Source: a virus (taxonomy: Duplodnaviria > Caudoviricetes). From it: 60,788 bases of DNA. The translations under genes and the position numbers were made by a program. The notes beneath the pieces were generated by a model. That model did not search any database, was not told where the DNA came from, and worked only from the letters and a program-made list of their open reading frames with translations. Positions 48,612 to 60,788 of the stretch are shown here, piece after piece; position 1 is the first letter of the stretch, and each line of letters opens with the position of its first letter. The DNA is taken from IMG/VR virus record IMGVR_UViG_3300037070_008166, positions 1 through 60,788 of that record; one strand, 5' to 3'.

Positions 48612-49025
48612 TTACTCGGCCTCCCCCGGCAAGTTTTCCAACGCCTCGTTGGCCCATTCGTCGGGCCCGTCGAGCGTGAGATCCTCGAACTGAAGTGGCT
48701 GGATGGCTCCATCCTGACCGTCGACGGCCTCCCACGCTTCGACCATCTCACTGGCCACTTCCCCCTTCTCCCCTTCCTTCCACGTGTCGGTGTGGTCATC
48801 GAACTCGCTGCGGAGGCGTTCCGTGATTTCGGCGACGAAGGCCATCTCTGTTTCCAGCTTCTGGTTGTAGATTTCCACCACCGTGCCGTTGAACTGGTCG
48901 ATGAGCTCGCGGATCTGCGCGTTCAGGTCCTCCAGCCTCGCCTCCACCACGTCCTTCGCGTCGGACAGCACGTTCATGGACGCGTTCAGGTTCTTCTGCT
49001 CGGCCTTGCTCAAGCGAAACGCCAT
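48612..49025 (-). CDS. acidic coiled-coil hypothetical protein
   Basis: GGAGG RBS; E/D-rich. Confidence 0.7.
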   Translation of the reverse strand: MAFRLSKAEQKNLNASMNVLSDAKDVVEARLEDLNAQIRELIDQFNGTVVEIYNQKLETEMAFVAEITERLRSEFDDHTDTWKEGEKGEVASEMVEAWEAVDGQDGAIQPLQFEDLTLDGPDEWANEALENLPGEAE

Positions 49026-49252
49026 TAATCTACCCTCCTCACGTCGACCACTTTGACCACATCTTCGCTGTTCGGATTGAGGTCGTTCCAGAACGACTCG
49101 TAGACCGCTTCCACGTCCGCCGGTGTCTTACTTGTGCGGAACATGAGATTGTCCTTCGTGTCGATCACTTCCACGCGGGCCTTCCCCACCCGCCGTCGCG
49201 TTGCCCGGCTCATGGCGACGGCGGTCACTGCGAACTTCATGGTTGACTCCAT
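49025..49252 (-). CDS. hypothetical protein
   Basis: 75 aa, coupled to neighbours. Confidence 0.55.
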   Translation of the reverse strand: MESTMKFAVTAVAMSRATRRRVGKARVEVIDTKDNLMFRTSKTPADVEAVYESFWNDLNPNSEDVVKVVDVRRVD

Positions 49253-49473
49253 CCTAGCTGTTCTATCATCTGAGTGAGATTGACTTCACCCATCGAATTC
49301 CACACAACAAATATCTTCCCAGATGCTGTGTGAAATGCACGTGCGCCATACGGACCACACGACGGAAAGCCATCGTGGCCGTATTTCACACTGACGATTG
49401 TCTCGTTCAGCAACGCATCAAAGCTGACGTGACGACGGATCCATCGCTTTTCTTTCTTGGTGCCAGATTCCAT
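49237..49473 (-). CDS. hypothetical protein
   Basis: ATG just after the helicase stop (MESGTKKE...). Confidence 0.55.
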   Translation of the reverse strand: MESGTKKEKRWIRRHVSFDALLNETIVSVKYGHDGFPSCGPYGARAFHTASGKIFVVWNSMGEVNLTQMIEQLGWSQP

Positions 49474-49477
49474 CGTC

Positions 49478-50932
49478 CTACTCCGTGACCCAGACCAAGG
49501 ACTTCTTGGCCCGCGTGATAGCGACATACTGGATGTTCTTTTCTTCCTGGTTGTGGTTGCGCAGCGTCGACTGCAGCACGAACACCCGGTCGGCCTCCAG
49601 ACCCTTCGACTTGTGGACCGACGAGCACGTGATCATACCCGCCTTGCCCAAGCCGTCATCCACGAACAACGCTTCGATGCGATCGAGCACTTCAGCCACA
49701 TCCTCGGCTCCATCCGTGAGCTCGATGAGCATGTCCGCCTTGTCCCGGATTCCCTCGACCAGTTTCTCCCGCTTCGCTCGGATCATCCGGTCGATTTCCC
49801 GTTCCCGCCACGCGATGAGTCGGTCCGTGAACTCGGCGACCGTTCGCGCCTTCAGCTTGCGGCACAGTGCAATCAGACCCTGACCAATGTTCCGGCCTTC
49901 GATCTGGGTGCGTTTGCCATTCCGGAGCAGCCGCATCGCCACGTTGACGAGCGGGGCGTTCACCCGCGAGAGGATGAAGTCGCCGGGACCTGCTTCCAGG
50001 AAGAGCTCGTGATACTTGATCGTTCGCACCTCACCCTCGTGATTGTCCGGCCCTGCGCTGAAGTCTTCCACCAACCGCTGCGCTTCTGCCACGATGGCTT
50101 TTCCACACCGATACGTGGTGGTCAGTGGGAGTTCCTCGGCGTCCAGTTCCTGCTGAATTCGCGCCATGGACTCCGAGTCCGCACCACGAAAGGCGTAGAT
50201 CGCTTGCATGTCATCACCGACGCCGGCGATCCGGTTCCGGCACACGCCCATGGCCAGTTCCAGCTGCGCCTTGGTCATGTCCTGCATCTCGTCGATTACC
50301 ACGAGGTCATACGACTTGTGCATCCAGCCGTTGCGGACTGGCAGAAAGATCATGTCCGCGCCGTCGATCCCGGTCAATACCGGCTTCACCGACGCGGCCA
50401 GCTCCATCGCTTCGAGCGCCTTCGTCTCCACGAACTCCGCACCGAAGCCGAGCGGCTCGTAGGCTTCATCCGGAACCAGTTCGAACTGATACTGGATGTC
50501 GGTCAGATCGCCGACCTTGCGAGCGTGTGGTTCCATCTCGCGACCCTTCGAGTGCAGCTTGGAAATCAGCTTCTTGATCGCGTCTGGCACACGCACGCCG
50601 CACACTTGCTGCGTGAGGTTGTCCTGGCGATCATCCTCGAAGTTCACGATGACGTCGGGCCAGTAGATCTTGACACACGCGAGGCCGACGCCGTGCAGGG
50701 TCTTCACAGTCGCGCGGGAGTTGCGTTGCTTGAACTCCTTGGCGATGCGGTTGTTGTAGGCGCAGTAGAGAATGTCGCGTTCCGGCGCGGCATTGATCCC
50801 GTCCAGCGCCGTGGTCGACTTCCCGGTGCCGGCTCGAGCCTTGATGATGAGATAGGGGCGATGCACGAGCGGCAGTCCCAGGCCGAACTTGAACCACCGA
50901 ATGATCGCCTCTTGTTGCAGTGAGTGTTTCAT
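49478..50932 (-). CDS. UvrD/Rep-like superfamily 1 helicase
   Basis: 'ARAGTGKS', 'TLHG', 'VIDEMQD', 'VGDDMQAIYAFRGA', 'TYRC', 'SVHKSKGLE', 'YVAITRAK'. Confidence 0.93.
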   Translation of the reverse strand: MKHSLQQEAIIRWFKFGLGLPLVHRPYLIIKARAGTGKSTTALDGINAAPERDILYCAYNNRIAKEFKQRNSRATVKTLHGVGLACVKIYWPDVIVNFEDDRQDNLTQQVCGVRVPDAIKKLISKLHSKGREMEPHARKVGDLTDIQYQFELVPDEAYEPLGFGAEFVETKALEAMELAASVKPVLTGIDGADMIFLPVRNGWMHKSYDLVVIDEMQDMTKAQLELAMGVCRNRIAGVGDDMQAIYAFRGADSESMARIQQELDAEELPLTTTYRCGKAIVAEAQRLVEDFSAGPDNHEGEVRTIKYHELFLEAGPGDFILSRVNAPLVNVAMRLLRNGKRTQIEGRNIGQGLIALCRKLKARTVAEFTDRLIAWREREIDRMIRAKREKLVEGIRDKADMLIELTDGAEDVAEVLDRIEALFVDDGLGKAGMITCSSVHKSKGLEADRVFVLQSTLRNHNQEEKNIQYVAITRAKKSLVWVTE

Positions 50933-51019
50933 GGAGCCTCCTCAGGCCGGTTAATTCCGGCGACGCGGACGGATCTGGATGGTGCCAGATCCGTCGCGAA
51001 TTGATGCGTTTCTAGCTCC
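50933..51019 (-). ncRNA. type II hammerhead ribozyme F (upstream of helicase)
   Basis: Minus strand: GGAGC-UA-GAAAC-GC..(UGGCACCA hairpin)..GC-GUC^-GCCGG-AAUUAA-CCGGC-CUGAGGA-G-GCUCC-AUG; predicted cut 50962/50961. Confidence 0.85.
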
Positions 51020-51179
51020 GGCTCGCTTCCGCGACGACTGGCGGCCACACGATTCCTGCACACGCGGTGCAGATCGCAATCTCACGCTTGATGTTGCCGT
51101 CCTCGTAGCGTTCGACGACTTCCTTCGTCATGGGTTCGTGCAGCTTCGTGATCTTCTGGCAGAGCTGACATCTAAACAT
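51012..51179 (-). CDS. small zinc-finger protein
   Basis: Not in track: MFRCQLCQK...ICTACAG...SRS*, GGAG RBS; its TAG lies in ribozyme F. Confidence 0.6.
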   Translation of the reverse strand: MFRCQLCQKITKLHEPMTKEVVERYEDGNIKREIAICTACAGIVWPPVVAEASRS

Positions 51180-51375
51180 GTTTCTCTCCTTCCGTCACAG
51201 GCAGCATGTCGATGTGCACGCGGCACCCGGTCAGCTTCTCGAGGAACTGCTCGGTCTCGAGAATCTTCTGGGTGATTTCCACGGCGTTGAGCGTCTCCGC
51301 ATCCACCGGATACCCTGGCACGATGGCCAGGGTTTCCGTGGAACGCTTCACGGTGAGATGGAACTTGACCTTCAC
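51172..51375 (-). CDS. hypothetical protein
   Basis: GTG start with AGGAGG RBS, coupled to upstream stop. Confidence 0.6.
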   Translation of the reverse strand: MKVKFHLTVKRSTETLAIVPGYPVDAETLNAVEITQKILETEQFLEKLTGCRVHIDMLPVTEGEKHV

Positions 51376-51944
51376 TTCGCCTCCTTGGTGAACGCGCCGG
51401 TGAACAACCAGCGCAGCCGGTGCTTCAGCGGGACGGTGTTGAACAACGTCGTGGTCTCCAGGACCTGGAGGCGGAGCTCGTCGACCTGCGATTCGAGCGA
51501 CTTGCACCGGGCCTCGTATTCCCGACGGTCGAGCCGCATCTGCGACATCGCGGATTCGGTGACCGACGTCACGGTTTCCTTCAGGATGTCCTGTCCCTCG
51601 AGCTGCTCGGTGATCTTTTCGACGATCACTTCGTCCAGGTCCTTCTCCTTCACAAACTCGTCGAAGTCCAAGTCGTCGACGGCCTTTTCCACCATCGAAT
51701 CCAGGTTGTTGACGACCAGATCCTCGAGCCGACGGTCGAACTCCCGGCTCTCGAGCACTGACTCCCGGACTGCGTCTTCATCCAGGATCTCGGGCAGGTC
51801 TTCGATGCGCTTCTCGAGCAACGAGAGGAACGCTTCGGTGTGTTCACCGAGTCGACGGTCGAACTCGGTGGTAAACAACGGGTCCGTGCAGAACTGACAG
51901 GTGCCATTGATGCAGGTGCAGATACGAACAGGTGTGGTGCTCAC
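51372..51944 (-). CDS. acidic helical/coiled-coil hypothetical protein
   Basis: 190 aa, D/E-rich, internal EFDRRL repeat. Confidence 0.7.
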   Translation of the reverse strand: MSTTPVRICTCINGTCQFCTDPLFTTEFDRRLGEHTEAFLSLLEKRIEDLPEILDEDAVRESVLESREFDRRLEDLVVNNLDSMVEKAVDDLDFDEFVKEKDLDEVIVEKITEQLEGQDILKETVTSVTESAMSQMRLDRREYEARCKSLESQVDELRLQVLETTTLFNTVPLKHRLRWLFTGAFTKEAK

Positions 51945-52141
51945 AGGGCCTCCTTCTTTTCGGTGATGTCATCGGTGGATGGAACGACGCGCCACTCGCG
52001 GACCAGGAGCCAGCGGCCCATCAGGTCCACGGCGTAGCGTTCGGCTTCCAGTTCGGTGCGGAACCGCAGCGCGTTGCCGGCCCAGACGCCGGAACTGTCA
52101 GCGATCACTTCGACTTTGAACGACTTCATCACGTCACTCAT
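51941..52141 (-). CDS. hypothetical phage protein
   Basis: 'WAGNALRF.TELEAERY..DL..RW' pattern. Confidence 0.65.
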   Translation of the reverse strand: MSDVMKSFKVEVIADSSGVWAGNALRFRTELEAERYAVDLMGRWLLVREWRVVPSTDDITEKKEAL

Positions 52142-52331
52142 CGTAGAGCTCCTGTTCCACGCCAGCCCACTTGGCCAGAACTGAACTAATCACGAAGGAC
52201 TTCGAGCAGTTGAATCGCGCCGCGTCCCGTTCCACCCGACGGCGAATCGCCGGGTGGAGGGAGGACGGGGACGGGATGCGGATGACGTCGCGAATGCGCG
52301 GCTGGTTGCGAAGCGTCTTGTGCTTAGGCAT
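52134..52331 (-). CDS. putative ribbon-helix-helix DNA-binding protein
   Basis: 'SSLHPAIRRRVERDAARFNCSKSFVISSVL' Arc/CopG-like. Confidence 0.55.
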   Translation of the reverse strand: MPKHKTLRNQPRIRDVIRIPSPSSLHPAIRRRVERDAARFNCSKSFVISSVLAKWAGVEQELYDE

Positions 52332-52554
52332 TGGCCCTCTTTTCCATACGGCGCTTGGCCCAGGATGCCTTCATTGCCAGCGAGCGGCGACGAGAGACAC
52401 TGAAGCTGGTGCGCTTCTTCACCACTTTCCTTCGCTTCCAGGTCGTCTTGCCAACGATCTTCGCCGCCATTGCCGGCGTGCCTGGTATCTCGAACAACGC
52501 ATCGAGCGCATCCGCTGCAAACCGCAACTTCTGTGAGAGTGTCTTGATCGTCAT
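52324..52554 (-). CDS. small basic protein
   Basis: Lys/Arg-rich 'RRRSLAMKASWAKRR' C-terminus. Confidence 0.6.
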   Translation of the reverse strand: MTIKTLSQKLRFAADALDALFEIPGTPAMAAKIVGKTTWKRRKVVKKRTSFSVSRRRSLAMKASWAKRRMEKRANA

Positions 52555-52557
52555 GGG

Positions 52558-52941
52558 TCACATCCCGTAGGTGGCGTAAGTGAAGACTTCCTTCTTCAGA
52601 TACGACTCGAGGAAGTCGTAGACCTCGGCGTCATACGACTTCTTGAACATGGCCTGCAGCTTCGGCGACTCCTTGAATTCCTTCATCCGCTTCAAGGACT
52701 CCTCGAACCGATTCGCGTCGAGCACGATCTCGATCACGTGTGACTTGGGCAAGCTGACGTTCTCCGCGGTGTGCTTGCCCCGGCGACCGTAGCCATTCTT
52801 TTCCATCGCGATGGCTTCCAGCACATCCCCAGCGCAGTCGTTCCACACCCCATCCGCGGCCCAGCGGATGGCACGGAGTTCGGTCTCGGACAGGTCGAAC
52901 TGCTTCTTCAATTGCGTCAGCGTCTTCGTTGAGCGTTTCAT
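52558..52941 (-). CDS. hypothetical protein
   Basis: GAGGAGG RBS supplied by ribozyme E. Confidence 0.75.
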   Translation of the reverse strand: MKRSTKTLTQLKKQFDLSETELRAIRWAADGVWNDCAGDVLEAIAMEKNGYGRRGKHTAENVSLPKSHVIEIVLDANRFEESLKRMKEFKESPKLQAMFKKSYDAEVYDFLESYLKKEVFTYATYGM

Positions 52942-53016
52942 GGAACCTCCTCAGGCCCGTCTATTCGGGCGAGTCGCGACCTTGGTGCCAGATTTCGCGA
53001 ACTTTCTAACTCCATG
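52939..53016 (-). ncRNA. type II hammerhead ribozyme E
   Basis: CAUGGAGU-UA-GAAAG-UUCGCGA..UGGCACCA..UCGCGA-CUC^-GCCCG-AAUAGA-CGGGC-CUGAGGA-G-GUUCCAUG; predicted cut 52971/52970; stem II covers the AUG. Confidence 0.85.
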
Positions 53017-53024
53017 CAGTAATT

Positions 53025-53152
53025 TGGGCGACTGGGACGACTTTGAGCCAGCCCAGGCGACCGCCCAGGACGCGTCCGGAACGGCGGTAAGGGTAGCGTC
53101 CCCTCCGTCCGTTCCGGCCGTCCTGTGTCGGGTATCTAACCTGAACGCGCCC
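53025..53152 (-). ncRNA. candidate structured RNA of unknown class
   Basis: Long hairpin CAGGACG/CGUCCUG + CCGGAACGG/CCGUUCCGG + AGGG/CCCU and a second hairpin CUGGG/CCCAG in a gap without a credible ORF. Confidence 0.45.
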
Positions 53153-53490
53153 TATCCCGCGACTTTCTCGAGCGTGTCCAGTCGGTAGCGCTGGCCGAGG
53201 CCAGTTCCGTGACCCATGCCGTGTTTCCGTTCGCACGAATCACACATGAGAGCCCACGGCCCCATCAGTGTCTTGCCATCCGTGAAGAAATCCTTCAACG
53301 GCTGGTGGCACATCTCGCACTTCACGGGCGTGACCCCCATCCACTTGCGCTTTTCCACCGTCTTCCTCCCTTCTTTGTGGGCGAGCACCGCGCCCACGGT
53401 CAGGTCCACGAATCGCGGGCCACCCACGCGGGCGATCCGTTCTTCCTGGACTTGCTCGAACGTGACCGGACGTCGTCTATTTGGTGACAT
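53152..53490 (-). CDS. Zn-binding hypothetical protein
   Basis: CxxC...'DGKT..GPWALMCDSC....G.G.GTGLGQRY' pattern. Confidence 0.7.
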   Translation of the reverse strand: MSPNRRRPVTFEQVQEERIARVGGPRFVDLTVGAVLAHKEGRKTVEKRKWMGVTPVKCEMCHQPLKDFFTDGKTLMGPWALMCDSCERKHGMGHGTGLGQRYRLDTLEKVAG

Positions 53491-53779
53491 CGGTGTAGAC
53501 CTCCAGTTCGAAATCGAGGAACTCGCGAATCGTCATGTCCGGCATCGCGCACGTCCAGATGCCAAGGCACGTGTCGGCGGCGACGTCGAACAGCGTCGCC
53601 TTCGCCGCCTCGAGCACCTGCTCACCCTGTTCCAGCGCTGTGTCCTCCTGTCCCTTCTCGGAGATGAAGAGCAACTCCATCTTCAACGCCCGCACCAGCT
53701 TGCCCTCGTCTTCCTTGTCCGGGTGATGATCCCGACCCAGGAAGCCGTCCATATCCACTTTCGTCACGCGGAACAACAT
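53477..53779 (-). CDS. hypothetical protein
   Basis: AGGAGG RBS; coupled start/stop. Confidence 0.65.
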   Translation of the reverse strand: MLFRVTKVDMDGFLGRDHHPDKEDEGKLVRALKMELLFISEKGQEDTALEQGEQVLEAAKATLFDVAADTCLGIWTCAMPDMTIREFLDFELEVYTDVTK

Positions 53780-54009
53780 CAGAACTCCTCCTTGTAGCCG
53801 AGCAATTCGAACCACGTGGTGCCGCCAACGATTGACAGCTTCCCGGTGCCATACATGTCCACGGCATAATTGTATGCCGTGGACACGTCGTAGGCTTTTC
53901 CAAGTCGACGCTCCGCGTAGATCTTCGCGGCGGCGAGTGTGTAGAACACCTTCGACTCCTTCAGTCCGTCGATGGTGGTGTAGCGCAGCCGGATGAGATT
54001 ACCGGACAT
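53779..54009 (-). CDS. hypothetical protein
   Basis: 76 aa, coupled to neighbours. Confidence 0.6.
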   Translation of the reverse strand: MSGNLIRLRYTTIDGLKESKVFYTLAAAKIYAERRLGKAYDVSTAYNYAVDMYGTGKLSIVGGTTWFELLGYKEEF

Positions 54010-54199
54010 CGAAGTGATCCATGGCGGTGGCGAGCAGATGATTGTAGTCCCCGCTTCTCATCTCCTTCATCACCTCGTCGATCTGCTCCTTGGTCCAGCC
54101 CGCCTTGCGAGCCGCTTCCTTGCACCGACCGAGAATGGCGAAGGCGTTTCCATCCTCACCAACCAGCTTCACCTTGGGACGCTTGCGCGTATCAGACAT
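53999..54199 (-). CDS. conserved small phage protein
   Basis: 'VKLVGEDGNAFAILG....A.RKAG....I.....E..SGDY.HLL' pattern; GGAGG RBS. Confidence 0.75.
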   Translation of the reverse strand: MSDTRKRPKVKLVGEDGNAFAILGRCKEAARKAGWTKEQIDEVMKEMRSGDYNHLLATAMDHFDVR

Positions 54200-54482
54200 C
54201 TCGCACCTCCACCAACTTGCAGACACGCATGAGATCTGCACGAATCTCTGGATACTCCTCTGAACCGTCAGCCGACACCGCGATCCTGAACGCCAGATCC
54301 TGGTCTAGACCCAATCTGTCCAAACATTCGGCGTAGTCGACGTCATGTCGATCAGCGACGGCAGTGATTGGACACACGTTCAAGCCGTTGGTTTCGTCTT
54401 TGGAACGAACTCGTTCGCCCCAATACAGATACCACGTGCGGTTCAACGCGGCCAGCTTCTCGAGGAACTCTTCATAGCTCAC
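54192..54482 (-). CDS. hypothetical protein
   Basis: GTG start, GGAGG RBS. Confidence 0.55.
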   Translation of the reverse strand: MSYEEFLEKLAALNRTWYLYWGERVRSKDETNGLNVCPITAVADRHDVDYAECLDRLGLDQDLAFRIAVSADGSEEYPEIRADLMRVCKLVEVRDV

Positions 54483-54649
54483 AGCACCACCTCCTCGACC
54501 AACGGCGTGCCGGGTGGCGGCGGATGGAAGCCACCCTGAATCACGAACTCGGCACCTCGCCAACGTGAGAACAGCTGCGCGTTCGCCGGGTCCAGGTCCC
54601 ATCCTGACCCGGTCCAGTAATACGTGAACGCCTTGATGCGATACTTCAT
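54479..54649 (-). CDS. small hypothetical protein
   Basis: Not in track: MKYRIKAFTYYWTGSGW...; coupled at both ends, AGGAGG RBS. Confidence 0.55.
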   Translation of the reverse strand: MKYRIKAFTYYWTGSGWDLDPANAQLFSRWRGAEFVIQGGFHPPPPGTPLVEEVVL

Positions 54650-54939
54650 CACTGGACCTCCTGTCCGCCGACCTGACGGACCGTTCGACCACCCTCTTCG
54701 ACGATGTGTTCCTGCTGCGCCCGGAGCTCCTCGACCTTCGCGACGAGGAACTCGTAGACCTTCTGCTTGTTCCCTTTCAGGCCGAACTCCTGCTTGGCGA
54801 CCGCGTAGCAGGAGCGGCCCCGCGTCAGCTTCATCCCGCGCAGTTCCGCCCGCACACCCGTCATCAGGGTGGCGAGACGGAAGTAGGCGATGCTGTCCCC
54901 GGTCACGGTCGTTCCGCCTTTGTGGTGGCTGATAGGCAT
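54649..54939 (-). CDS. hypothetical phage protein
   Basis: 'E..GMKLTRGRSCYAVAKQEFGLKGNKQKV' pattern. Confidence 0.65.
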   Translation of the reverse strand: MPISHHKGGTTVTGDSIAYFRLATLMTGVRAELRGMKLTRGRSCYAVAKQEFGLKGNKQKVYEFLVAKVEELRAQQEHIVEEGGRTVRQVGGQEVQ

Positions 54940-54940
54940 G

Positions 54941-55144
54941 TTAGTGTCCCTCGTTCCAGGTGGAAATGTCCTCGACCGCTTCGTCGAAGGACCAGACGGG
55001 AACCGCCGTCACGGTGTATTCGTCATCTTGCTCGTCGAGTGCTTCTTCGAGCTCCACTCGCCTCAGCTCCGCCACGTCGTCGTTGGTGACGCAGATGAAG
55101 TCGAGTTGCGGGTTACCACGCCATCGAATGACGAGGGCCTTCAC
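54941..55144 (-). CDS. acidic small protein
   Basis: GTG start coupled to upstream stop. Confidence 0.55.
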   Translation of the reverse strand: MKALVIRWRGNPQLDFICVTNDDVAELRRVELEEALDEQDDEYTVTAVPVWSFDEAVEDISTWNEGH

Positions 55145-55398
55145 TTGACACCCGACTGATGCTGAAGCGGAACGTCGAGCCACTCGAGCGCGCCCGCCAC
55201 CCAGCATCCCGGCTTGTGGCTGTCGACGTCACCGCAGATGAGGCACTCGACGAACGTCTCCTCGCTGGTCGAGATGTTACGAACCACGACTTCCTGCAAC
55301 TGCTCGACGGCGTGAGCGATTTCCACTTCCTGTTGCATGCTCAGTGTCGGAGCCTGACTGGGGTGGGTGGGTTGATGATGGAACCAGAGTTTGGCCAT
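55141..55398 (-). CDS. Zn-binding hypothetical protein
   Basis: CLIC....H..GC motif; GGAGG RBS. Confidence 0.6.
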   Translation of the reverse strand: MAKLWFHHQPTHPSQAPTLSMQQEVEIAHAVEQLQEVVVRNISTSEETFVECLICGDVDSHKPGCWVAGALEWLDVPLQHQSGVK

Positions 55399-55400
55399 GA

Positions 55401-55925
55401 CTACCTCCAAGAGAAGTGACGCTGGTCGAGGATGATCGACGTGACATCCCCGCCCGCCGGATTGGCGAACGTGAACTCTTCAAGACGCCGGTAGACCCGT
55501 TCCGCGTCTTCACGCACTTCCTCGATAACGGCTCCACGCTTCCAGTTCGTATCCACGATGAACACCGAACCGCCACCGTTCGAGCAGATGATGCGTGGTC
55601 CGATGGTGTCGGGAAGACCCATGTTCACGTAGTAACGCATCGCCCCACCCTTCTCACTGCTTTCCGTGTGACCCGCATCTTTCAACTCCTCGATGTTCGT
55701 GACGGTGCCTTCCAGCCGATACGACTGGACGAACGAATTGGCGCGGGGCCGTTCCCAGGTGTCGTTCCCGTCCACCGGCGTCCAGGTGAACTTCCACTGA
55801 CGTGTAACCATGGCGGCTCGCGCCTTCTTCACCTCCGCTTCACGCTTCGTCAGCACTTCGAGTTCGGCGTTGAGTTCCTTGCGACGTTCTTCGATGACGT
55901 GGAGTTCGTGAGTGAGTGTTGGCAT
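55401..55925 (-). CDS. hypothetical protein
   Basis: 174 aa with N-terminal coiled coil. Confidence 0.7.
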   Translation of the reverse strand: MPTLTHELHVIEERRKELNAELEVLTKREAEVKKARAAMVTRQWKFTWTPVDGNDTWERPRANSFVQSYRLEGTVTNIEELKDAGHTESSEKGGAMRYYVNMGLPDTIGPRIICSNGGGSVFIVDTNWKRGAVIEEVREDAERVYRRLEEFTFANPAGGDVTSIILDQRHFSWR

Positions 55926-56575
55926 TAGCGTCCATCCCAGTCTGAGAACGGTGTGGTGTAGCTGCGGTTGCCGCTGAGGTAGTTCACGGTCACGACGGAT
56001 TCACCGCCGTCGCCGTCGGGTTCGTAGATGCGGGCCACGAACTCCTTGGTCACGATGATCGTTTCGAAGTCGTCTTGGCGAATCATCGCGAACGTGGCCG
56101 TCACCGGGTAGTAGGCCCGGTCGGTATCGAGGAACGGACGGAACGCGCCGAACGGTTCCTCCCGCTGTCGTCGTGCGAGTTTGTCGGTCGTCATGGCATC
56201 TCCTTCAGGCCGGTCAATTCCGGCGACCCGCCGAAATCTTTGGTGCCAGATTTCGATCTGACTCACCTGAGCTCCGCCGTTCGCCTTCTTGTCCGCCGGC
56301 TCGGGAGCCATCGGGATGGCCGTGAGCGCGACTCCACGCTCACCGCGCTCCTTCAGGGTCCACTTCGCCGCGATGGCGTCCTTCACGAACTGGTCGAACT
56401 TCGCCTGTGCCTTGTCCTCTTCCTTCAGGTCGAAGTAGTCGCGCCCCGTCTTCACCTTCTGACCGGGAGCGCGGTGACGGAACGACACCTTGAAGTCCTT
56501 CTTCCCCCTGTGCAGGGAGACCGTGAGGGTGTCGTCCATCGCGCAGGTGAACTTCGCCGTCTGATTCTTTACCAT
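55925..56575 (-). CDS. hypothetical protein; two modules joined in-frame through decayed ribozyme D (internal start at 56194)
   Basis: MVKNQTAK... reads without a stop through the ribozyme-like element into AAGGAG-RBS-preceded MTTDKLAR... Confidence 0.6.
   Translation of the reverse strand: MVKNQTAKFTCAMDDTLTVSLHRGKKDFKVSFRHRAPGQKVKTGRDYFDLKEEDKAQAKFDQFVKDAIAAKWTLKERGERGVALTAIPMAPEPADKKANGGAQVSQIEIWHQRFRRVAGIDRPEGDAMTTDKLARRQREEPFGAFRPFLDTDRAYYPVTATFAMIRQDDFETIIVTKEFVARIYEPDGDGGESVVTVNYLSGNRSYTTPFSDWDGR
56195..56256 (-). pseudogene. degenerate hammerhead ribozyme D
   Basis: Keeps UGGCACCA hairpin, GUC and stem I GCCGG-AAUUGA-CCGGC, but core is CUGAAGGA and the UA-GAAA/stem II 5' strand is missing. 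Confidence 0.7.
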
Positions 56576-56640
56576 GCTCGCACCTTCTGACCGATGACCA
56601 CCAGCGGAATTGCCGGTGGGTCTTGCTACGGAGCGGGCCA

Positions 56641-56925
56641 TTAGTTCCACTCCGTATCCATGATGGCGATGAATGTGAGGCATTCCATCGCCGCCTTGAA
56701 CGCATCCCGGGTGGCCGACGGGGCCGACCCGGAGTAATTGAACGAGTCCACGATCGTCCCGCGTGGTGCCAGATCCATCGGCTGTTTGAGAGACTGGTCG
56801 ATGAACGGCTGCCGCACCACGAGGAAGTGCGACGAGTTGTTGGAAACGATGAGCGCCTTGCCGTAGTCCGTGAGCACTTCGGCACAGGGTTCATACTTCG
56901 AGATTTCGATGGATGTGTTCGCCAT
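56641..56925 (-). CDS. hypothetical protein
   Basis: GAGG RBS; 94 aa. Confidence 0.6.
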   Translation of the reverse strand: MANTSIEISKYEPCAEVLTDYGKALIVSNNSSHFLVVRQPFIDQSLKQPMDLAPRGTIVDSFNYSGSAPSATRDAFKAAMECLTFIAIMDTEWN

Positions 56926-56935
56926 GAAGGCACCT

Positions 56936-57391
56936 CTACAGCGTGTAAACCGGGTTGAACAGCAAACGGAAGGCGTTCCAGGTCTCGCGGAGGTGGCCGC
57001 CCACCTTTTCTTCGACCCGTTCCGCCGGCCGCACCTTGTCCGCGAGCATTGCGTCCGCGTAGTTCAGGGACGCGGCCCGGCACTCCTGGCACGGTTCGTC
57101 ATCGTGAGGCGGGTCTCCTGCGTGACGATGGCACGCGTGTGGTTCATGCACGGCGATAGTTTCTCGCCGTTCAGCGTAGTCTTCCTTCGAGACAAGCTCC
57201 AGGTCGTCGTGCTCGCTGCGGTTGAGGTAGAACAGCTTGAACTCTTCGCCGAGCCCGTCGTAGCGGACCCGGAGCTCGTAGAGTTTGTTGCCGGTCCAAG
57301 AGCCGCCGTCCTTCATCGTGTAGGACAGCGTCCAGTAGGTCGTGCCGGTCTCGCGGCTCATCGCGATCTCCGGCTTGTCGAATCGAGTCAT
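56936..57391 (-). CDS. hypothetical protein (His/Cys motif)
   Basis: ATG directly after ribozyme C (MTRFDKPE...). Confidence 0.65.
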   Translation of the reverse strand: MTRFDKPEIAMSRETGTTYWTLSYTMKDGGSWTGNKLYELRVRYDGLGEEFKLFYLNRSEHDDLELVSKEDYAERRETIAVHEPHACHRHAGDPPHDDEPCQECRAASLNYADAMLADKVRPAERVEEKVGGHLRETWNAFRLLFNPVYTL

Positions 57392-57393
57392 AA

Positions 57394-57472
57394 GGCACCT
57401 CGTCAGGCCCGTCCATTCGGGCGACGCGACGAATCTGGATGGTGGCCAGATTCGTCGTGGGTTTCTAGCGCC
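57394..57472 (-). ncRNA. type II hammerhead ribozyme C
   Basis: GGCGC-UA-GAAAC-..CGACGAAUCUGG-CCACCAU-CCAGAUUCGUCG-C-GUC^-GCCCG-AAUGGA-CGGGC-CUGACGA-G-GUGCC; predicted cut 57423/57422. Confidence 0.85.
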
Positions 57473-57635
57473 GTGGGCAGCTGATGAGACCGATATGGTC
57501 CCAATCAGCAGGAATGAACGTGCCGGAGCGATACAAGAAATGCTCGGCTCGTTCACGAGTTTCGAACGTCGCAATCAGGTTCAGCGGTGCGACGCCTTGT
57601 CCGTTGTTCCAGTAGAGAATCCACGAGAGTTTCAC
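57465..57635 (-). CDS. small hypothetical protein
   Basis: GTG start with AGGAGG RBS; its TAG lies in ribozyme C. Confidence 0.6.
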   Translation of the reverse strand: MKLSWILYWNNGQGVAPLNLIATFETRERAEHFLYRSGTFIPADWDHIGLISCPRR

Positions 57636-57684
57636 AGGCCCTCCTTGAATGTTCCGTCTGGGAATACGAGCCAACGTCGCCGTT

Positions 57685-57825
57685 TCATCTGTCCTCCAGA
57701 ATGCGACGTTCCATCTCGTCGCGAGGGTCGGCATATTCGACGCCGTCATCGTCACCCTTCTCACGCGGGTCTTGCTCGATTTCCACGTCGTCGTCATCCG
57801 GTTGGTCTTCGCCAGGATATCTCAT
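57685..57825 (-). CDS. very acidic 46-aa peptide
   Basis: Not in track: MRYPGEDQPDDDDVEIEQDPREKGDDDGVEYADPRDEMERRILEDR; AGGAG RBS; ATGA coupling. Confidence 0.55.
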   Translation of the reverse strand: MRYPGEDQPDDDDVEIEQDPREKGDDDGVEYADPRDEMERRILEDR

Positions 57826-58367
57826 CGCACGCTCCTAATCTTGTTGGCTGCAGCGGTTCGCTGCCGTTCCCGTGTCAGCACGTCTTTCCACTCCCGCGTC
57901 TCGGCCTCATGCGGCCAGATTTCCGAGAGCGCACCATACATCAGCGGCCGGAGCTCAGCGAGCAGCCCCGGATTGGTCACGAACAGCCGGAAGATCTCGG
58001 CGAACCACTCGTTCGTGTTCGCCGCGTAGCTGGTGATAGCATCTTCACCTGTTTCCCGACGCAGCTGCGCCGAGATGGTGCCGGATTTCGCACCGTGAGC
58101 CCGGTCCACGTGATGACCGAGCTCATGCGCGAGCACGCCATAGGGCGTGCGGTCGATGACGTAGCCAGGGAACGACCACGCCGGACCGCCCGTCCCGATG
58201 TGCGCGCAGCGCTTCACGGAGATGTGAATCACGTTGTTCCGGTAGTAGGCGCAGGTCCCGAAGAACGACGTATCTTCTTCGATGATGACCGGCGGAGCCA
58301 CCTGATTCAGGTTGCACCACCGTTTCACGAGGATCTCACCCGCGTAGAACATGTCACGCTTGTTCAC
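57822..58367 (-). CDS. zincin-like metallopeptidase domain protein
   Basis: HELGH motif plus downstream 'ITSYAANTNEWFAE' third-ligand motif. Confidence 0.75.
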   Translation of the reverse strand: MNKRDMFYAGEILVKRWCNLNQVAPPVIIEEDTSFFGTCAYYRNNVIHISVKRCAHIGTGGPAWSFPGYVIDRTPYGVLAHELGHHVDRAHGAKSGTISAQLRRETGEDAITSYAANTNEWFAEIFRLFVTNPGLLAELRPLMYGALSEIWPHEAETREWKDVLTRERQRTAAANKIRSVR

Positions 58368-58569
58368 GCTTCACCTCCGTCCGGTCCACTTCGCGGAGAC
58401 CGTCGTCATAGCGGTCGGTGCGATACTTCTTGTCGAGCCGAATCAAAAAGCAGTCCCCGTCGATTCCCTCGAGCACGCCGTGCTCCTCCGGCCAATCCTC
58501 CGTCGGGTTGGCAGGGAGCAGCACGCGGTCACCGTCTTTCCAATCTTTGGTGCCAGATTTCTTGGTCAT
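58354..58569 (-). CDS. small SH3/KOW-like beta-barrel protein
   Basis: 'WKDGDRVLL....E.GV...I.G...LIRLD' pattern. Confidence 0.6.
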   Translation of the reverse strand: MTKKSGTKDWKDGDRVLLPANPTEDWPEEHGVLEGIDGDCFLIRLDKKYRTDRYDDGLREVDRTEVKREQA

Positions 58570-58733
58570 CGGTCGTTCCTCGCTTCCTCAGCCCAGACCT
58601 TGCGTTGACGTTCGAACTCGTCCGCCGTCACCTGCTTCGCCCAGCGTCGCCAGCACGGCGTATGAGCTGGGACACCAAGATACCAAGTGACGCCGAACGG
58701 TTTTCCACAGATGGCGCAGCGACGCGGTTTCAT
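58566..58733 (-). CDS. small zinc-finger protein
   Basis: CAICGK...HTPC. Confidence 0.55.
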   Translation of the reverse strand: MKPRRCAICGKPFGVTWYLGVPAHTPCWRRWAKQVTADEFERQRKVWAEEARNDR

Positions 58734-58737
58734 CGGA

Positions 58738-59088
58738 CTACCACGAGCCTTGCGAACGACGATTGACATCCAGACGGAGATCGGACAGGTGGTCGATTCC
58801 GTTGTCGACGTAGTCCAGCTTGTCCTCGAGGTCGCTGGACAGGTCGTGCAGGTTGTCGAGGCGACGGTCTTCCGCCTTGGACAGCGTGTTCACCGGGCTG
58901 TGGTCATCACCGGTCCGCGCTTCGAGCATCTCAATCTCGTTGTCGATGTCGACCATGAGGTTGTTCATCATGTTCGCGCCGAGGTTGAATGCCTTCATCG
59001 CCTTGTTGCGCAGCGCGATGCGAGCCTTGAGCGACATCGGGCGGAACTTTCGAGCGAAGCCGTGGTTACGACGAATGGACTTAGTCAT
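58738..59088 (-). CDS. coiled-coil hypothetical protein
   Basis: GAGGAGG RBS supplied by ribozyme B. Confidence 0.7.
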   Translation of the reverse strand: MTKSIRRNHGFARKFRPMSLKARIALRNKAMKAFNLGANMMNNLMVDIDNEIEMLEARTGDDHSPVNTLSKAEDRRLDNLHDLSSDLEDKLDYVDNGIDHLSDLRLDVNRRSQGSW

Positions 59089-59090
59089 TG

Positions 59091-59168
59091 GGAACCTCCT
59101 CAGGCCGGTTCATTCCGGCGATTGAGGGCGGATGGCTTGGTGCTACCATCCGCCCGATTTCTAGTTCC
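59091..59168 (-). ncRNA. type II hammerhead ribozyme B
   Basis: GGAAC-UA-GAAAU-C-GGGCGGAUGG-UAGCACCAAG-CCAUCCGCCC-UCA-AUC^-GCCGG-AAUGAA-CCGGC-CUGAGGA-G-GUUCC; predicted cut 59120/59119. Confidence 0.85.
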
Positions 59169-59400
59169 TGTCGAGCTCGACGAGTTTGCGAACCACATGC
59201 GGCCGGCCTTTGCCATTCACCAACTTCTTGGCCAGGACGTCCTCGGCGACCACACGGTCGTCGAACATGGCGACGTCGTCGGTCAGTTCCGGCGACCAGA
59301 GTATGTCGGTTGAGTCGTCGAGCAGATACGAACGCTTGGCTGCTCGAGCGCCGACGGGCACGAGGTCAGACACAATCACGTAGACGATGGACTTGTTCAT
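59161..59400 (-). CDS. hypothetical protein
   Basis: MNKSIVYVIV...; its TAG lies in ribozyme B. Confidence 0.6.
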   Translation of the reverse strand: MNKSIVYVIVSDLVPVGARAAKRSYLLDDSTDILWSPELTDDVAMFDDRVVAEDVLAKKLVNGKGRPHVVRKLVELDRN

Positions 59401-59543
59401 CGCTTGACCTCGATGACCTTTGAACCAGGGAAGAACACGAGAAGTTCTTTGACCGACGAGAACTTCATCACACCAGCTCCACCAACCGAAACACAAATCT
59501 GTCGGCCTTGGCGGTAATACTTCAGAGTCAGAGTCTTGGCCAT
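59397..59543 (-). CDS. small hypothetical protein
   Basis: Not in track: MAKTLTLKYYRQG...; AGGAGG RBS; ATGA coupling. Confidence 0.55.
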   Translation of the reverse strand: MAKTLTLKYYRQGRQICVSVGGAGVMKFSSVKELLVFFPGSKVIEVKR

Positions 59544-59650
59544 TAGTGAGCCTCCTGAGCAACGAGCCACCGAAAGGTGGCGAACCAGACAACCACACCG
59601 ATGAGCAGGTAAGGCAGCAGCGTTTCCATTTCAGTGACTCCATTGGAAGT

Positions 59651-59684
59651 GCCCGGCGAATCCTTGGTGCCAGATTCGCCGGGC
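59651..59684 (-). promoter_or_regulatory. stand-alone UGGCACCA-loop hairpin
   Basis: GCCCGGCGAAUC-UGGCACCAAG-GAUUCGCCGGGC, perfect 12-bp stem, no hammerhead core. Confidence 0.7.
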
Positions 59685-59693
59685 GAGGATGAA

Positions 59694-59891
59694 CTACGTG
59701 AGACGCAACTCCTTGACCATCGCGTCGAACTGCTTCTTGGTGCAGAACGACTTCTCTTCGACGGTCAGCTTGTTGTAGTTGAAGTCGAGCTCGATGAACG
59801 AGTAGCGCAAGAACTGGCGAACCACGTTCACCGTGACCAGCGTGACCGGGTGAATCAGCACGTCGCCGGTGATAGGCTTCATGTTATCCAC
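59694..59891 (-). CDS. hypothetical protein
   Basis: 65 aa, in operon. Confidence 0.55.
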   Translation of the reverse strand: MDNMKPITGDVLIHPVTLVTVNVVRQFLRYSFIELDFNYNKLTVEEKSFCTKKQFDAMVKELRLT

Positions 59892-60060
59892 GCTTCACCG
59901 CCTTCAGTGTGAAGACCGCCCGGGAGTAGGAGCCGTCGCGGTATCGCTTGAACGGCTTGACCTTGACCACTTCGAAGACCTGACCCACGCGGAACACCTT
60001 GAGTTCGTTCTTGCCGTCGCGCGTCCAGGCCATCTGCACTTGAAACCGTTTCGTATTCAT
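59884..60060 (-). CDS. small basic beta protein
   Basis: Not in track: MNTKRFQVQMAWTRDGK...; AGGAG RBS. Confidence 0.6.
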   Translation of the reverse strand: MNTKRFQVQMAWTRDGKNELKVFRVGQVFEVVKVKPFKRYRDGSYSRAVFTLKAVKRG

Positions 60061-60068
60061 GGTGGCTC

Positions 60069-60230
60069 CTAGAAGTTACGGACTCGCTCGTTGTGCCGCC
60101 GAGCCACGACACGCGCCATCTTGTCGAGCAGACTCGACGGCTTGGGCAGCTGCGACTGGGACAGCTTGTAACATGTGGAGCAGAGACCCTCGCGGGTGGC
60201 CTTCTTGATTTCACAGCAGTAGCATTTCAT
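60069..60230 (-). CDS. small zinc-finger protein (first gene of the minus-strand operon)
   Basis: MKCYCC...LCSTC; ATG directly after ribozyme A. Confidence 0.6.
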   Translation of the reverse strand: MKCYCCEIKKATREGLCSTCYKLSQSQLPKPSSLLDKMARVVARRHNERVRNF

Positions 60231-60231
60231 G

Positions 60232-60291
60232 GGAACCTCGTCAGGCCCGTTCATTCGGGCGAGGCCAGCTGGCGCCAGCCTTTCTAGTTCC
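60232..60291 (-). ncRNA. type II hammerhead ribozyme A
   Basis: GGAAC-UA-GAAAG-GC-UGGCGCCAGCUG-GC-CUC^-GCCCG-AAUGAA-CGGGC-CUGACGA-G-GUUCC; predicted cut 60261/60260. Confidence 0.85.
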
Positions 60292-60294
60292 ACG

Positions 60295-60715
60295 GCTTGC
60301 GAATCCGGTTGGGTGCCGAATTCGCGAGCCGCGTTGGCATTGTGTTGGCTTGTATGTGGAGGACTTGTTTGCTCTGAATCCCGTTCGCCTGGACCGGCAT
60401 GCGCGAGTTTCATCAGAGTGATTCGTTACGCGGTCGTTCAGACCGTTTCGCCGTTCGCCCGAAAGCGTTTCATCCCTCAGTCCCGTATCCGCCGCGTTGC
60501 GCTCGCTCGTTGCGACTGCATGGTGCCAGATTCGCGAAGCGCGCAGGAGGACCGGCTATCCCGAGGATACCAGCACTCGACGTAGGTTTCTGGGAGGCTC
60601 TTGATTCCCTTACCCGGAACGCTTTTCAGCTCCACCGTTACGGTGGCCGGTCTCAGGGCAATTCGGCGACTCCCCGTCACCCACGCCCGTTCGGCCCTAA
60701 CACGACGGCCCGAAC
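60295..60715 (-). ncRNA. candidate long structured leader/ncRNA
   Basis: ~420 nt with no credible ORF and many hairpins, including a UUCG loop and two GGCAC-loop hairpins. Confidence 0.45.
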
Positions 60716-60722
60716 TAGGCCA

Positions 60723-60728
60723 ATTATA
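60723..60728 (-). promoter_or_regulatory. putative -10 box (TATAAT) of early promoter
   Basis: Perfect TATAAT on minus strand just upstream of the structured leader; no canonical -35. Confidence 0.5.
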
Positions 60729-60788
60729 CCGCGCTGCCAGGCTGCTTGCTTGCTGCGTGGTGCCAGACGCTAACTCCTTTACTATCAA

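Follow-up and report, generated by a model that had tools for sequence, protein, structure and literature searches.

The window analysed here is the whole 60,788 nucleotides (positions 1-60,788) of IMG/VR record IMGVR_UViG_3300037070_008166, from an uncultivated soil phage (Caudoviricetes). Its leftward early operon contains repeated RNA elements, each filling the whole gap between two open reading frames (ORFs). These elements raise the question of what they are, and whether the same nucleotides that would build a catalytic core also end translation of one gene and begin translation of the next. We found five intact, paralogous three-way junctions resembling type II hammerheads and one decayed relic, all on the minus strand between early genes. 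The pattern TAGAAA...CTGANGAG matches that strand four times, against 0.00 matches expected from shuffles, and a fifth intact copy, F, has a longer stem III.

Hammerhead-like junctions between early genes

The intact junctions lie at 60232-60291 (A), 59091-59168 (B), 57394-57472 (C), 52942-53013 (E) and 50933-51019 (F), all on the minus strand, and score 69.6, 56.9, 55.2, 54.6 and 56.8 bits, respectively, with our covariance model R1. In every one, stem II forms between the 5 nt preceding UAG and the 5 nt that follow CUGANGAG (GGAAC/GUUCC twice, GGCGC/GUGCC, GGAGU/GUUCC and GGAGC/GCUCC; 59168-59164 with 59095-59091 in B), and minimum-free-energy folding with 30-nt flanks returned the three-way junction for all five. 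Each contains the core strand CUGANGA (C3-U4-G5-A6-N7-G8-A9), a GAAA that opens stem III and a UC ahead of stem I, so that C3, U4, G5, A6, G8, A9, G12, A13, A14, the A15.1-U16.1 pair and C17 are present throughout. The topology is type II, with stem II open and loops capping stems I and III. Cleavage after C17 is predicted at 60261/60260 in A, 59120/59119 in B, 57423/57422 in C, 52971/52970 in E and 50962/50961 in F.

Searching with R1 gave 59 credible family members, in the window and at 14 IMG/VR loci. Across these 59 relatives from 11 viral contigs all three helices covary: 98.7% of the cells in the alignment are paired and 13 of the 16 pairs show compensatory changes, a result reached by none of 500 shuffles, and slid controls were 26-45% paired. 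The A15.1-U16.1 pair is found in all 58 rows that have letters at these positions.

One feature of the core departs from the canonical form. The G10.1-C11.1 pair that normally closes stem II is missing from all five intact window copies, where G10.1 is present and U-A replaces C11.1. Family-wide, this site reads UA in 24 copies, AC in 23, AAC in 4, CA in 4 and UC in 2. The U-A could represent either a G-U wobble with an inserted A or a G-A mismatch with a bulged U; in all 28 copies with A as the second base, U or C comes first, consistent with pairing to G10.1. By descent, the five intact window copies have in common the UA ahead of GAAA, a variant of the core in place of C11.1. G10.1-C11.1 is described as the most conserved hammerhead pair after A15.1-U16.1 (PMC3088659), and its absence from all five copies could therefore reduce activity. 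A natural active variant with a U10.1-U11.1 mismatch is reported in the same paper (PMC3088659), so the pair is not absolutely required.

The window has no relevant Rfam match at the gathering cut-off or at E<=10, and a 141-nt search around B gave the same result. Relatives with the canonical core score 25.4-33.0 bits on Rfam Hammerhead_II (RF02276), under its gathering cut-off of 37, and one locus (L007) scores 37.5 bits on Hammerhead_3. In Hammerhead_II, loop I pairs with the 3' tail after a short stem II (PMC3088659), an arrangement visible in L032, a canonical Rfam type II hammerhead. Here, a covarying stem II of 5-6 bp occupies the place of that pseudoknot, and by eye the loop I consensus AAUNNA has no consistent complement in the tail (spacer plus AUG).

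The lack of an Rfam match in the window, together with the noncanonical 11.1 site in all of its copies, would suit a structured translational operator or a protein-binding three-way junction that resembles a hammerhead. We regard such a non-ribozyme as most improbable, because all other catalytic nucleotides are kept in the five intact copies, relatives with a canonical C11.1 sit in the same alignment and score near the Rfam cut-off, and the decayed copy, D, has the look of lost constraint. Copy D (56195-56270, minus strand; 33.5 bits), found with the covariance model at 56195-56247, keeps the stem I hairpin, CUGAAGGAG and the distal stem III hairpin. Its core strand reads CUGAAGGA, GAAA is absent from the expected place and the stem II pairing is lost; a strong Shine-Dalgarno sequence (SD), AAGGAG, is kept 5 nt before an AUG at 56194 that is in frame with ORF 55925-56683. 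The elements most likely belong to a variant sub-family of the type II hammerheads, as putative self-cleaving ribozymes that serve as punctuation between cistrons.

The family was also sought elsewhere. The GenBank phage collection contained no match by megablast of 50800-60788 or blastn of a 59-nt family member, and tblastn of the helicase encoded behind junction F gave only relatives with less than 35% identity, spread over phages of many hosts, which prevents any host from being named. Scanning bacterial and archaeal genomes with a pattern of stem I plus core returned 12 loci, most of which we rejected as chance matches lying, by context, within protein-coding sequence; only L028 and perhaps L030 resemble members of the family, each in truncated form. 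RF02276 was found in none of 5 genomes and then in 1 of 151 (L032), numbers too small for generalising. Because the Rfam models miss this sub-family, such elements are probably under-counted in phage metagenomes.

The core strand as a putative Shine-Dalgarno sequence

Core positions G8-A9-G10.1-G10.2 read GAGG, or GGAGG where N7 is G. The original prediction placed a ribosome binding site (RBS) of GAGGAGG or GAGG a few nucleotides before the next AUG, and this is what the window contains at all five intact junctions: GAGGAGG in B, E and F and GAGG in A and C, 4-6 nt before an ATG. In A, GAGG at 60239-60236 precedes the AUG at 60230 of a Cys-rich ORF (60069-60230, 53 aa); in B, GAGGAGG at 59101-59095 precedes the AUG at 59088-59086 of a gene for 116 aa with no family match (58738-59088); and in C, GAGG at 57401-57398 precedes the AUG at 57391-57389 of a 151-aa gene (56936-57391, from ATG 57391). 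The AUG behind E (52941-52939) opens a 127-aa gene (52558-52941) whose homologues in L003, L006 and L010 also stand directly behind a family hammerhead, and the AUG at 50932 directly behind F opens a gene for a UvrD-like DNA helicase (49478-50932). All of these genes are on the minus strand. When 10 flanking proteins were each compared with Pfam and PHROGs, the helicase was the sole informative match; the 112-aa gene upstream of E matches two PHROGs of unknown function, and a 181-aa protein has a Peptidase_M90 match below the Pfam cut-off. A scan of 49000-60788 for promoters and terminators found no excess above shuffles.

The arrangement extends to the relatives. We counted 57 copies, which are paralogues from only 11 contigs, so that conservation of GAGG may partly be inheritance and the counts overstate independent support; in 53 of them the purine-rich strand CUGANGA-G-G, with GG at 10.1-10.2, yields GAGG, and one of the four GG misses is a register slip that still reads GAGG. 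A start codon 4-12 nt after GAGG, opening an ORF of at least 30 codons, follows in 54/57 copies when the first start listed by the script is taken for each, compared with 379/1470 (26%) of the other GAGG sites in the same DNA. The commonest spacings are 5 and 6 nt. A 55th copy, L004:2113, has a TTG at 0 nt, listed first, and an ATG at 6 nt; L006:6197 has neither GAGG nor a G at N7, and is also without a start.

Would the same sequence be kept for the sake of the ribozyme alone? Phage genomes are tightly packed and G10.1 is conserved in hammerheads generally, so the overlaps with stop and start signals might be compaction with no translational role, GAGG being maintained only for the G10.1 and G10.2 of stem II. 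The random frame of the core UAG, described below, fits this as well. The partner of G10.2, however, makes compaction quite an unlikely explanation. At the 11.2-10.2 pair, 31 rows have C-G and 24 have U-G, with no case of both sides changing; G10.2 stays G across this switch of partner, though A-U would pair better. N7, the only free position of the core, is G in 3 of the 5 intact window copies, which extends GAGG to GGAGG, and in L003:2444 an A at 10.2 is compensated by a G at N7. In addition, most copies have no room for a second SD between core and start. A role for the core strand as the SD of the next gene is thus supported across the family by these sequence patterns. In L032, the single canonical type II hammerhead compared, the start lies ~40 nt downstream and the core has no SD, indicating that the overlap belongs to this sub-family and not to hammerheads in general.

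Predicted folds place the SD-bearing core strand in stem II before cleavage, with unpaired probabilities of 0.06-0.16 for G10.1/G10.2 in A, B, C and F. After cleavage these are predicted to be 0.24-0.89 in A, B, E and F, and in C three of the four GAGG bases are still predicted to be paired. The predicted gain in SD accessibility on cleavage is modest and uneven, which counts against unmasking. At junction E the stem II helix reaches 7-8 bp and extends across the AUG at 52941-52939, as had been claimed for this copy.

Upstream stop codons and stem II

On the upstream side, the original prediction held that the UAG of UAGAAA is the in-frame stop of the preceding ORF in B, C and F. ORFs 59161-59643, 57465-57797 and 51012-51179 (all minus strand) do terminate there, on the core UAGs at 59163-59161, 57467-57465 and 51014-51012; in each case G12 supplies the last letter of the stop and the two nucleotides ahead of it the rest. 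Upstream of B, the long ORF looks non-coding in its N-terminal half, and a real start at ATG 59400 (MNKSIV..., ~79 aa) is plausible. The ORF upstream of C likely starts at GTG 57636 behind AAGGAGG, and that upstream of F encodes 55 aa with CxxC...CxxC motifs. Agreement also extends to the copies for which no such gene was expected. The UAG of A (60286-60284) ends only a short ORF of 38 codons, or 18 from an internal Met. At E (53008-53006) a 76-codon GTG ORF formally ends on the UAG; we rejected it as a gene, as its translation is Arg/Gly-rich and it overlaps a real, PHROG-matched gene at 53152-53490. As the prediction also stated, the 3' end of the upstream ORF and the 5' strand of stem II overlap.

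UAG thus serves as the stop of a credible gene in 3 of 5 copies, and the probability of at least 3 of 5 at a chance of 1/3 is 0.21. Chance falls far short of explaining the motif copies and the SD-start arrangement, but not this coincidence. A random frame of UAG across homologous junctions had been named in advance as the outcome that would speak against a designed signal. We ran this test on half-junctions and the whole family, as 0 of 23 homologue-sharing pairs share both flanking genes. Among the UA copies outside the window, UAG is in the upstream frame in 5 of 17 evaluable cases, with ~5.7 expected by chance, and acts as the primary stop in 2 of 19; at the same site UA alternates with AC, AAC, CA and UC. 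The frame is random across relatives, which leaves the idea of UAG as a designed dual-use signal without support. The core UAG is an opportunistic local stop at B, C and F, and the relatives mostly have no such use of it. The UAG in UAGAAA is probably a by-product of a tolerated core variant, with U or C opposite G10.1 and an extra A.

A broader regularity does hold. The stop of the top upstream frame falls at -16 to -2 of G12 in 38/57 copies, compared with 1148 of 20000 random anchors (5.7%); it lies 24-57 nt upstream in 10/57, and 9/57 have no credible nearby upstream stop. The general rule is an upstream stop at most 16 nt 5' of G12, overlapping stem II. The proposed coupling between stop and stem II therefore survives in part, as a clustering of stops on the stem II strand without a designed UAG. 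A terminating ribosome covers roughly 12-15 nt beyond its A site. With stops so placed, it would have to open stem II.

The original prediction went further and described a switch, coupled by design, in which a ribosome terminating on the core UAG prevents cleavage and exposes the RBS, whereas an untranslated RNA folds, cuts itself and releases an independent 3' module. The geometry invites this reading: the stop is formed by G12 and the two nucleotides before it in B, C and F, it lies on or next to the stem II strand in those 38 family members, and a terminating ribosome would have to open stem II and occlude G12-A14, with the SD and spacer as the other strand. We nevertheless find the switch doubtful. 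UAG is not a conserved signal by either count given above, and the copies with distant stops or no credible stop have cores and starts that are still intact, so coupling is not needed for the element to work. Moreover, both routes lead to downstream translation, which leaves the regulatory gain unclear.

Gene boundaries and known systems

We lean instead towards the view that the elements are self-processing intercistronic cassettes, in which either cleavage or upstream translation unmasks the RBS. The RNA would cut itself between C17 and stem I. The upstream mRNA would then finish in the long hairpin of stem III, bearing a 2',3'-cyclic phosphate, and the downstream mRNA would open with a 5'-OH, followed by the stem I hairpin, an SD in single-stranded form and the AUG. 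The two products would be joined by the 5-bp stem II alone. Cleavage would therefore unmask the SD irreversibly and provide separate ends and stability for each cistron. A ribosome that completes the upstream ORF should also melt stem II; with the stop on or next to that helix, upstream translation would open the SD transiently and delay cleavage. An extended version of this idea, which we consider speculative and unlikely as a whole, makes the cassette a portable, translation-gated gene boundary: ribosome traffic upstream would decide between a joined RNA and an autonomous mRNA with its SD unmasked, and stops at the element's edge would permit recombination downstream of whatever gene, irrespective of frame. 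Stop codons do occur in one to three frames at the 5' edge. If true, portability in any frame would explain the shuffling among phages of single genes bounded by these ribozymes.

That shuffling could also be the primary function. The ~60-nt repeats might act as DNA-level linkers that allow single-gene cassettes to be exchanged within and between phages, with ribozyme and SD as the linker's cargo. Comparison of hammerhead copies from different contigs gave 14 pairs with a homologous upstream gene, 9 with a homologous downstream gene and none with both. Copies are 86% identical within contigs and 76% between them, and the type of core variant follows the contig. In four other contigs, a small gene flanked by hammerheads corresponds to the N-terminal domain of the ORF at relic D, and the PeSL cassettes of T4-type phages provide a precedent (PMC2839356). 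We rate a linker of this kind as a real but lesser possibility. The compensatory changes in all three helices and the invariant catalytic nucleotides demonstrate selection on RNA, beyond mere DNA identity, and linkers are compatible with the self-processing cassettes we favor and do not exclude them.

Parts of this arrangement have counterparts elsewhere. In phage T7, RNase III makes intercistronic cuts among the early genes, giving gene-length mRNAs with protective 3' hairpins; there the cut is made by a host enzyme, whereas here the RNA would cut itself, at a site fused to translation signals. In engineered hammerhead devices, a bacterial SD is concealed within a ribozyme stem until cleavage sets it free. 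Their unmasking logic is the same, but they are synthetic, and their SD occupies an extension added to a stem, not the catalytic core strand.

Among natural elements, type II hammerheads flank single genes in prophages, and processing of polycistronic RNA has been proposed for them (Perreault et al. 2011, PMC3088659). The same paper showed that tandem hammerheads from prophages cut polycistronic RNA, both in vitro and in E. coli (PMC3088659), and three D. vulgaris type II hammerheads cleave in vivo (PMC8782182). The RF02276 elements have the same catalytic core as those described here, and their copies likewise flank single genes or short blocks in phage DNA. They differ in that their consensus has a 2-bp stem II with a pseudoknot instead of a covarying stem II of 5-6 bp; in the C11.1 that is replaced here by U-A, and in our relatives by C-A or a bulged A plus C; and in the SD within the core, the start 4-12 nt beyond it and the upstream stop on stem II that characterize the present family. 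The HHphage ribozyme of haloviruses HF1/HF2 precedes the start codon of an early helicase gene by 13 nt, and a transcript 5' end maps beside its cleavage site (PMC3088659). Junction F likewise precedes a helicase gene; HHphage, in contrast, is a single copy in an archaeal virus and another structural variant, and the main text describing it does not claim its core as an SD.

Two families of intergenic repeats are also similar. The Start-Associated Sequences of Cluster K mycobacteriophages are confined to the non-structural half of the genome, contain an SD core 3-7 bp before starts, mostly ATG, and some include the upstream stop (PMC3203893). As described there, they are 13 bp long with optional inverted repeats, no ribozyme core and an unknown function (PMC3203893). 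PeSL cassettes, like the present elements, are short repeats between small, non-essential early genes and accompany modular shuffling; they are presented as a promoter plus a terminator stem-loop, with no ribozyme and no fusion to translation signals (PMC2839356).

The original prediction considered the junction not to be a described system. Hammerheads between phage genes have been described (PMC3088659), and in this respect the claim was too broad. We found no report in the literature of a natural hammerhead overlapping a stop codon or SD, and the main text of PMC3088659 contains neither "Shine-Dalgarno" nor "stop codon", with the qualification that its supplements (Dataset S1, Figures S1-S8 of Perreault 2011) may show such overlaps.

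According to a 2019 review, the biological role of bacterial and phage hammerheads is yet to be defined (PMC6765202). The present sub-family suggests a function that is concrete and testable. Its core strand would be the RBS of the next gene and its stem II ties the element to the end of the previous one, so that predicted cleavage and translation would be physically linked at ~60 junctions, making these elements a natural counterpart of the ribozyme insulators of synthetic biology.

Hammerhead-like elements at early gene junctions

The window (60,788 bases, 58% G+C, CheckV completeness estimate 70%) is an IMG/VR virus record with small, leftward early genes from about 60.8 kb down to 47 kb. 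The pattern TAGAAA-N(30-60)-CTGANGAG occurs four times on its minus strand, compared to 0.00 expected from shuffles, and a fifth copy has a longer middle part than the other four. Read 5' to 3', these junctions (A, B, C, E and F) begin with five nucleotides, UA and GAAA, followed by the stem III hairpin. Next come UC and stem I, a GC-rich 5-bp hairpin with the loop AAUNNA. The 3' end consists of CUGANGA and a G, a strand of five nucleotides that can pair with the opening five to form stem II, a gap of 0-3 nt, and AUG. This layout is the circular permutation named the type II hammerhead, and none of C3-A9, G12-A14, the A15.1-U16.1 pair or C17 is missing from the core. Stem II covaries among the five copies (GGAAC/GUUCC twice, GGCGC/GUGCC, GGAGU/GUUCC and GGAGC/GCUCC).

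Searching with the stem I and core pattern identified 14 loci (L001-L014) in 11 IMG/VR contigs, with at most nine occurrences per locus. A covariance model, R1, trained on 24 short copies, found 59 credible members in the window and these loci, including a sixth window copy, D (56195-56247). In the R1 alignment, pairing extends to 98.7% of cells, and compensatory changes occur at 13 of 16 pairs; none of 500 shuffles reaches this, and slid partners are only 26-45% paired. Although this alignment was fitted to the model, so that the structure is favored by construction, ordinary minimum free energy folding recovers that junction for all five window copies when 30-nt flanks are included. The elements are real and very probably ribozymes of the hammerhead class.

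An Rfam search of the window gave no relevant match. We attribute the elements' position below the Rfam cut-off to their noncanonical 11.1 position; relatives with a canonical core score 25-33 bits on Hammerhead_II (cut-off 37 bits). In one relative, L007:85-143 (-), this stem I hairpin and core recur in a type III layout, where stem II is capped and stem III is the open helix; it scores 37.5 bits on Hammerhead_3, implying that the topology was permuted within one lineage. A GC-rich inverted repeat between two minus-strand ORFs (59646-59694, +) has a weak, sub-threshold CRISPR-DR9 match (21.6 bits, E 3.2) and is probably just a hairpin.

The counts below refer to 57 copies, with the duplicate L009, the type III L007 and two junk hits left out; they are paralogues from 11 contigs and not independent. 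Two otherwise intact copies carry core insertions: L004:2790-2851 (-) reads GAUAA, with a U inserted after A13, and L004:1464-1523 (-) reads CUGAACGA, with an additional A after A6. Both resemble core insertions tested in Perreault 2011 (PMC3088659).

Directly before G12, the copies have UA (24), AC (23), AAC (4), CA (4) or UC (2). The AC variant can be read as the canonical C11.1 with a bulged A before it. An A at the second position always goes with U or C at the first (28 of 28 copies), and since either of these bases can pair with G10.1, the simplest reading of UA and CA is a G-U or G-C pair with one extra A. The variant tracks the contig, with UA in all five intact window copies and AC in 9 of 13 copies at L006/L008, and identity between copies is higher within contigs (86%) than between them (76%), so the five intact window copies share UA by descent.

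A probable Shine-Dalgarno sequence within the core

As originally predicted, the core strand appears to provide the next gene's ribosome binding site, with an ATG 4-6 nt past GAGGAGG (B, E, F) or GAGG (A, C). The stem II helix of E does extend over the AUG, with a predicted unpaired probability of 0.10-0.14 before cleavage and 0.81-0.99 after. GG occupies positions 10.1-10.2 in 53 of the 57 copies, one miss being a register slip in which GAGG is still read; the initial pattern forced GAGG, a relaxed one gained only two GAGG-less copies, and R1 hits were unforced. At the 11.2-10.2 pair, 31 rows have C-G and 24 have U-G, and the two sides never change together. Because G10.2 stays constant while its partner switches, it is held by more than pairing.

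In 54 of 57 copies, a start codon that opens an ORF of 30 or more codons follows GAGG by 4-12 nt when the first listed start is counted, compared to 379 of 1470 other GAGG sites. L004:2113 is a 55th, with TTG at 0 nt listed first and ATG at 6 nt second. Spacings of 6 nt (20 copies) and 5 nt (11 copies) are most frequent, and ATG accounts for 49 of the 55 listed starts. One of the two exceptions without a start, L006:6197, also lacks GAGG. L003:2444 has an A at 10.2, yet a G at N7 restores GAGGAG; N7 is G in three of the five intact window copies, compared to 4 of 51 elsewhere. Window genes without a hammerhead have ordinary Shine-Dalgarno sequences (GGAGG before GTG 58367, AGGAG before ATG 57825). 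Taken together, the placement of this signal within the putative ribozyme core is well supported, and full-text literature searches, which covered the main text of the key paper, found no description of it. A canonical Rfam type II hammerhead from a Rhizobiaceae-family genome (L032, G078:C374:3071-3136, -; 41.3 bits) has a loop I-tail pseudoknot, no Shine-Dalgarno sequence in its core, and the next start about 40 nt downstream.

Upstream stop codons

For each copy, we chose the frame with the longest upstream open stretch and located its stop. In the window, the UAG of UAGAAA is indeed the stop at B, C and F, and formally at E. The ORFs ending there, 59161-59643 (B), 57465-57797 (C) and 51012-51179 (F), all on the minus strand, are gene-like over their 3' parts. 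Plausible starts are ATG 59400 upstream of B and GTG 57636, behind AAGGAGG, upstream of C, and the F ORF encodes a 55-aa protein with two CxxC pairs. At A the UAG ends only a short ORF, of 38 codons or 18 from an internal Met. The formal 76-codon ORF at E overlaps a PHROG-matched gene (53152-53490) and its translation is Arg/Gly-rich and does not look like a gene, so that, again as predicted, no credible ORF ends there.

The expectation that UAG stays in frame as a stop across relatives was not borne out. Of the 19 UA copies outside the window, two (L001:4510 and L001:1760) have the core UAG as their primary stop. Of the 17 that could be evaluated, five have it in frame with the upstream gene, about 5.7 being expected by chance; three of these five sit behind an earlier stop. 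Three of five in the window is not beyond chance either (P 0.21 at 1/3). We conclude that UAG is not a conserved translation signal, a random frame among relatives being what the original prediction had set as its refutation, and that its use as a stop in the core is local and opportunistic.

Stops in general do concentrate here. The upstream stop falls at -16 to -2 of G12 in 38 of 57 copies, compared to 5.7% of 20,000 anchors placed at random in this DNA. It is most commonly at -9 (13 copies), where the stem II strand begins with the G of a UAG. This 15-nt interval contains one or more stops in 49 of 55 copies, compared to 55 of 165 control intervals, and has them in more than one frame (two or three) in 15 of 55, compared to 3 of 165. 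The AAC variant is a second way to place a stop at the core: its UAA consists of the last stem II strand base and two bulged A's, with the stop at -4 in two copies, and at L006:5232-5293 (-) and L006:3733-3789 (-) it ends long upstream ORFs (145 and 324 open codons). L010:2557-2617 (+) is preceded not by an ORF end but by a GC-rich hairpin and U-rich tail resembling an intrinsic terminator, suggesting that the element can also stand at the start of a transcript or behind a leaky terminator.

Gene shuffling and a model for processing

Among copy pairs from different contigs, 14 have homologous upstream genes and 9 have homologous downstream genes; no pair has both. The 127-aa gene after E, for instance, has homologues in L003, L006 and L010 that also lie behind a family hammerhead, with a different gene upstream of it each time. 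With one flank homologous but never both, hammerhead-bounded genes are reshuffled among phages, a situation similar to that of PeSL cassettes (PMC2839356) and of Cluster K mycobacteriophage start-associated sequences (PMC3203893). A linker role at the DNA level would be a second function, compatible with a role in RNA.

The decayed copy D (56195-56270, -) lies inside ORF 55925-56683. GAAA is absent from its expected place and stem II pairing is lost; AAGGAG and AUG 56194 are retained. The upstream frame stays open across the relic and continues in frame into the following ORF (252 codons), and residues 37-143 match separate hammerhead-flanked small genes in L001, L006, L010 and L012. This ORF could represent two fused cistrons, or an internal restart after ribozyme loss. 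Four small early proteins beside the ribozymes (60069-60230, 58566-58769, 53152-53490 and 51012-51179, -) have paired, zinc ribbon-like CxxC motifs and no Pfam match; 53152-53490 matched PHROGs of unknown function.

Self-cleavage between C17 and stem I would give the upstream mRNA the long stem III hairpin as its 3' end and leave a downstream mRNA with a 5'-OH, the stem I hairpin, the Shine-Dalgarno sequence and AUG, in that order. Before cleavage, G10.1 and G10.2 are predicted to be paired (unpaired probability 0.06-0.16 in A, B, C and F). Because the products would be linked only by stem II (predicted duplex energy -2.3 to -7.1 kcal/mol), cleavage would free the Shine-Dalgarno sequence for good, with a predicted gain in accessibility that is modest and uneven. 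From geometry and ribosome footprint sizes, a ribosome terminating at -2 or -9 would enclose both the stem II strand and G12-A14 in its channel; upstream translation would therefore oppose cleavage and open the Shine-Dalgarno sequence. Such coupling cannot be essential, since the stop is farther away or absent nearby in 19 of 57 copies. Translation-gated cleavage, a part of the original prediction, is a reasonable hypothesis.

Perreault et al. 2011 (PMC3088659) showed tandem prophage hammerheads cutting polycistronic RNAs of about 2 kb and proposed processing into gene-length mRNAs, and in vivo cleavage is reported for three type II hammerheads of D. vulgaris (PMC8782182). A 2019 review calls the purpose of such hammerheads still open (PMC6765202). 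Published hammerhead work supports the general frame.
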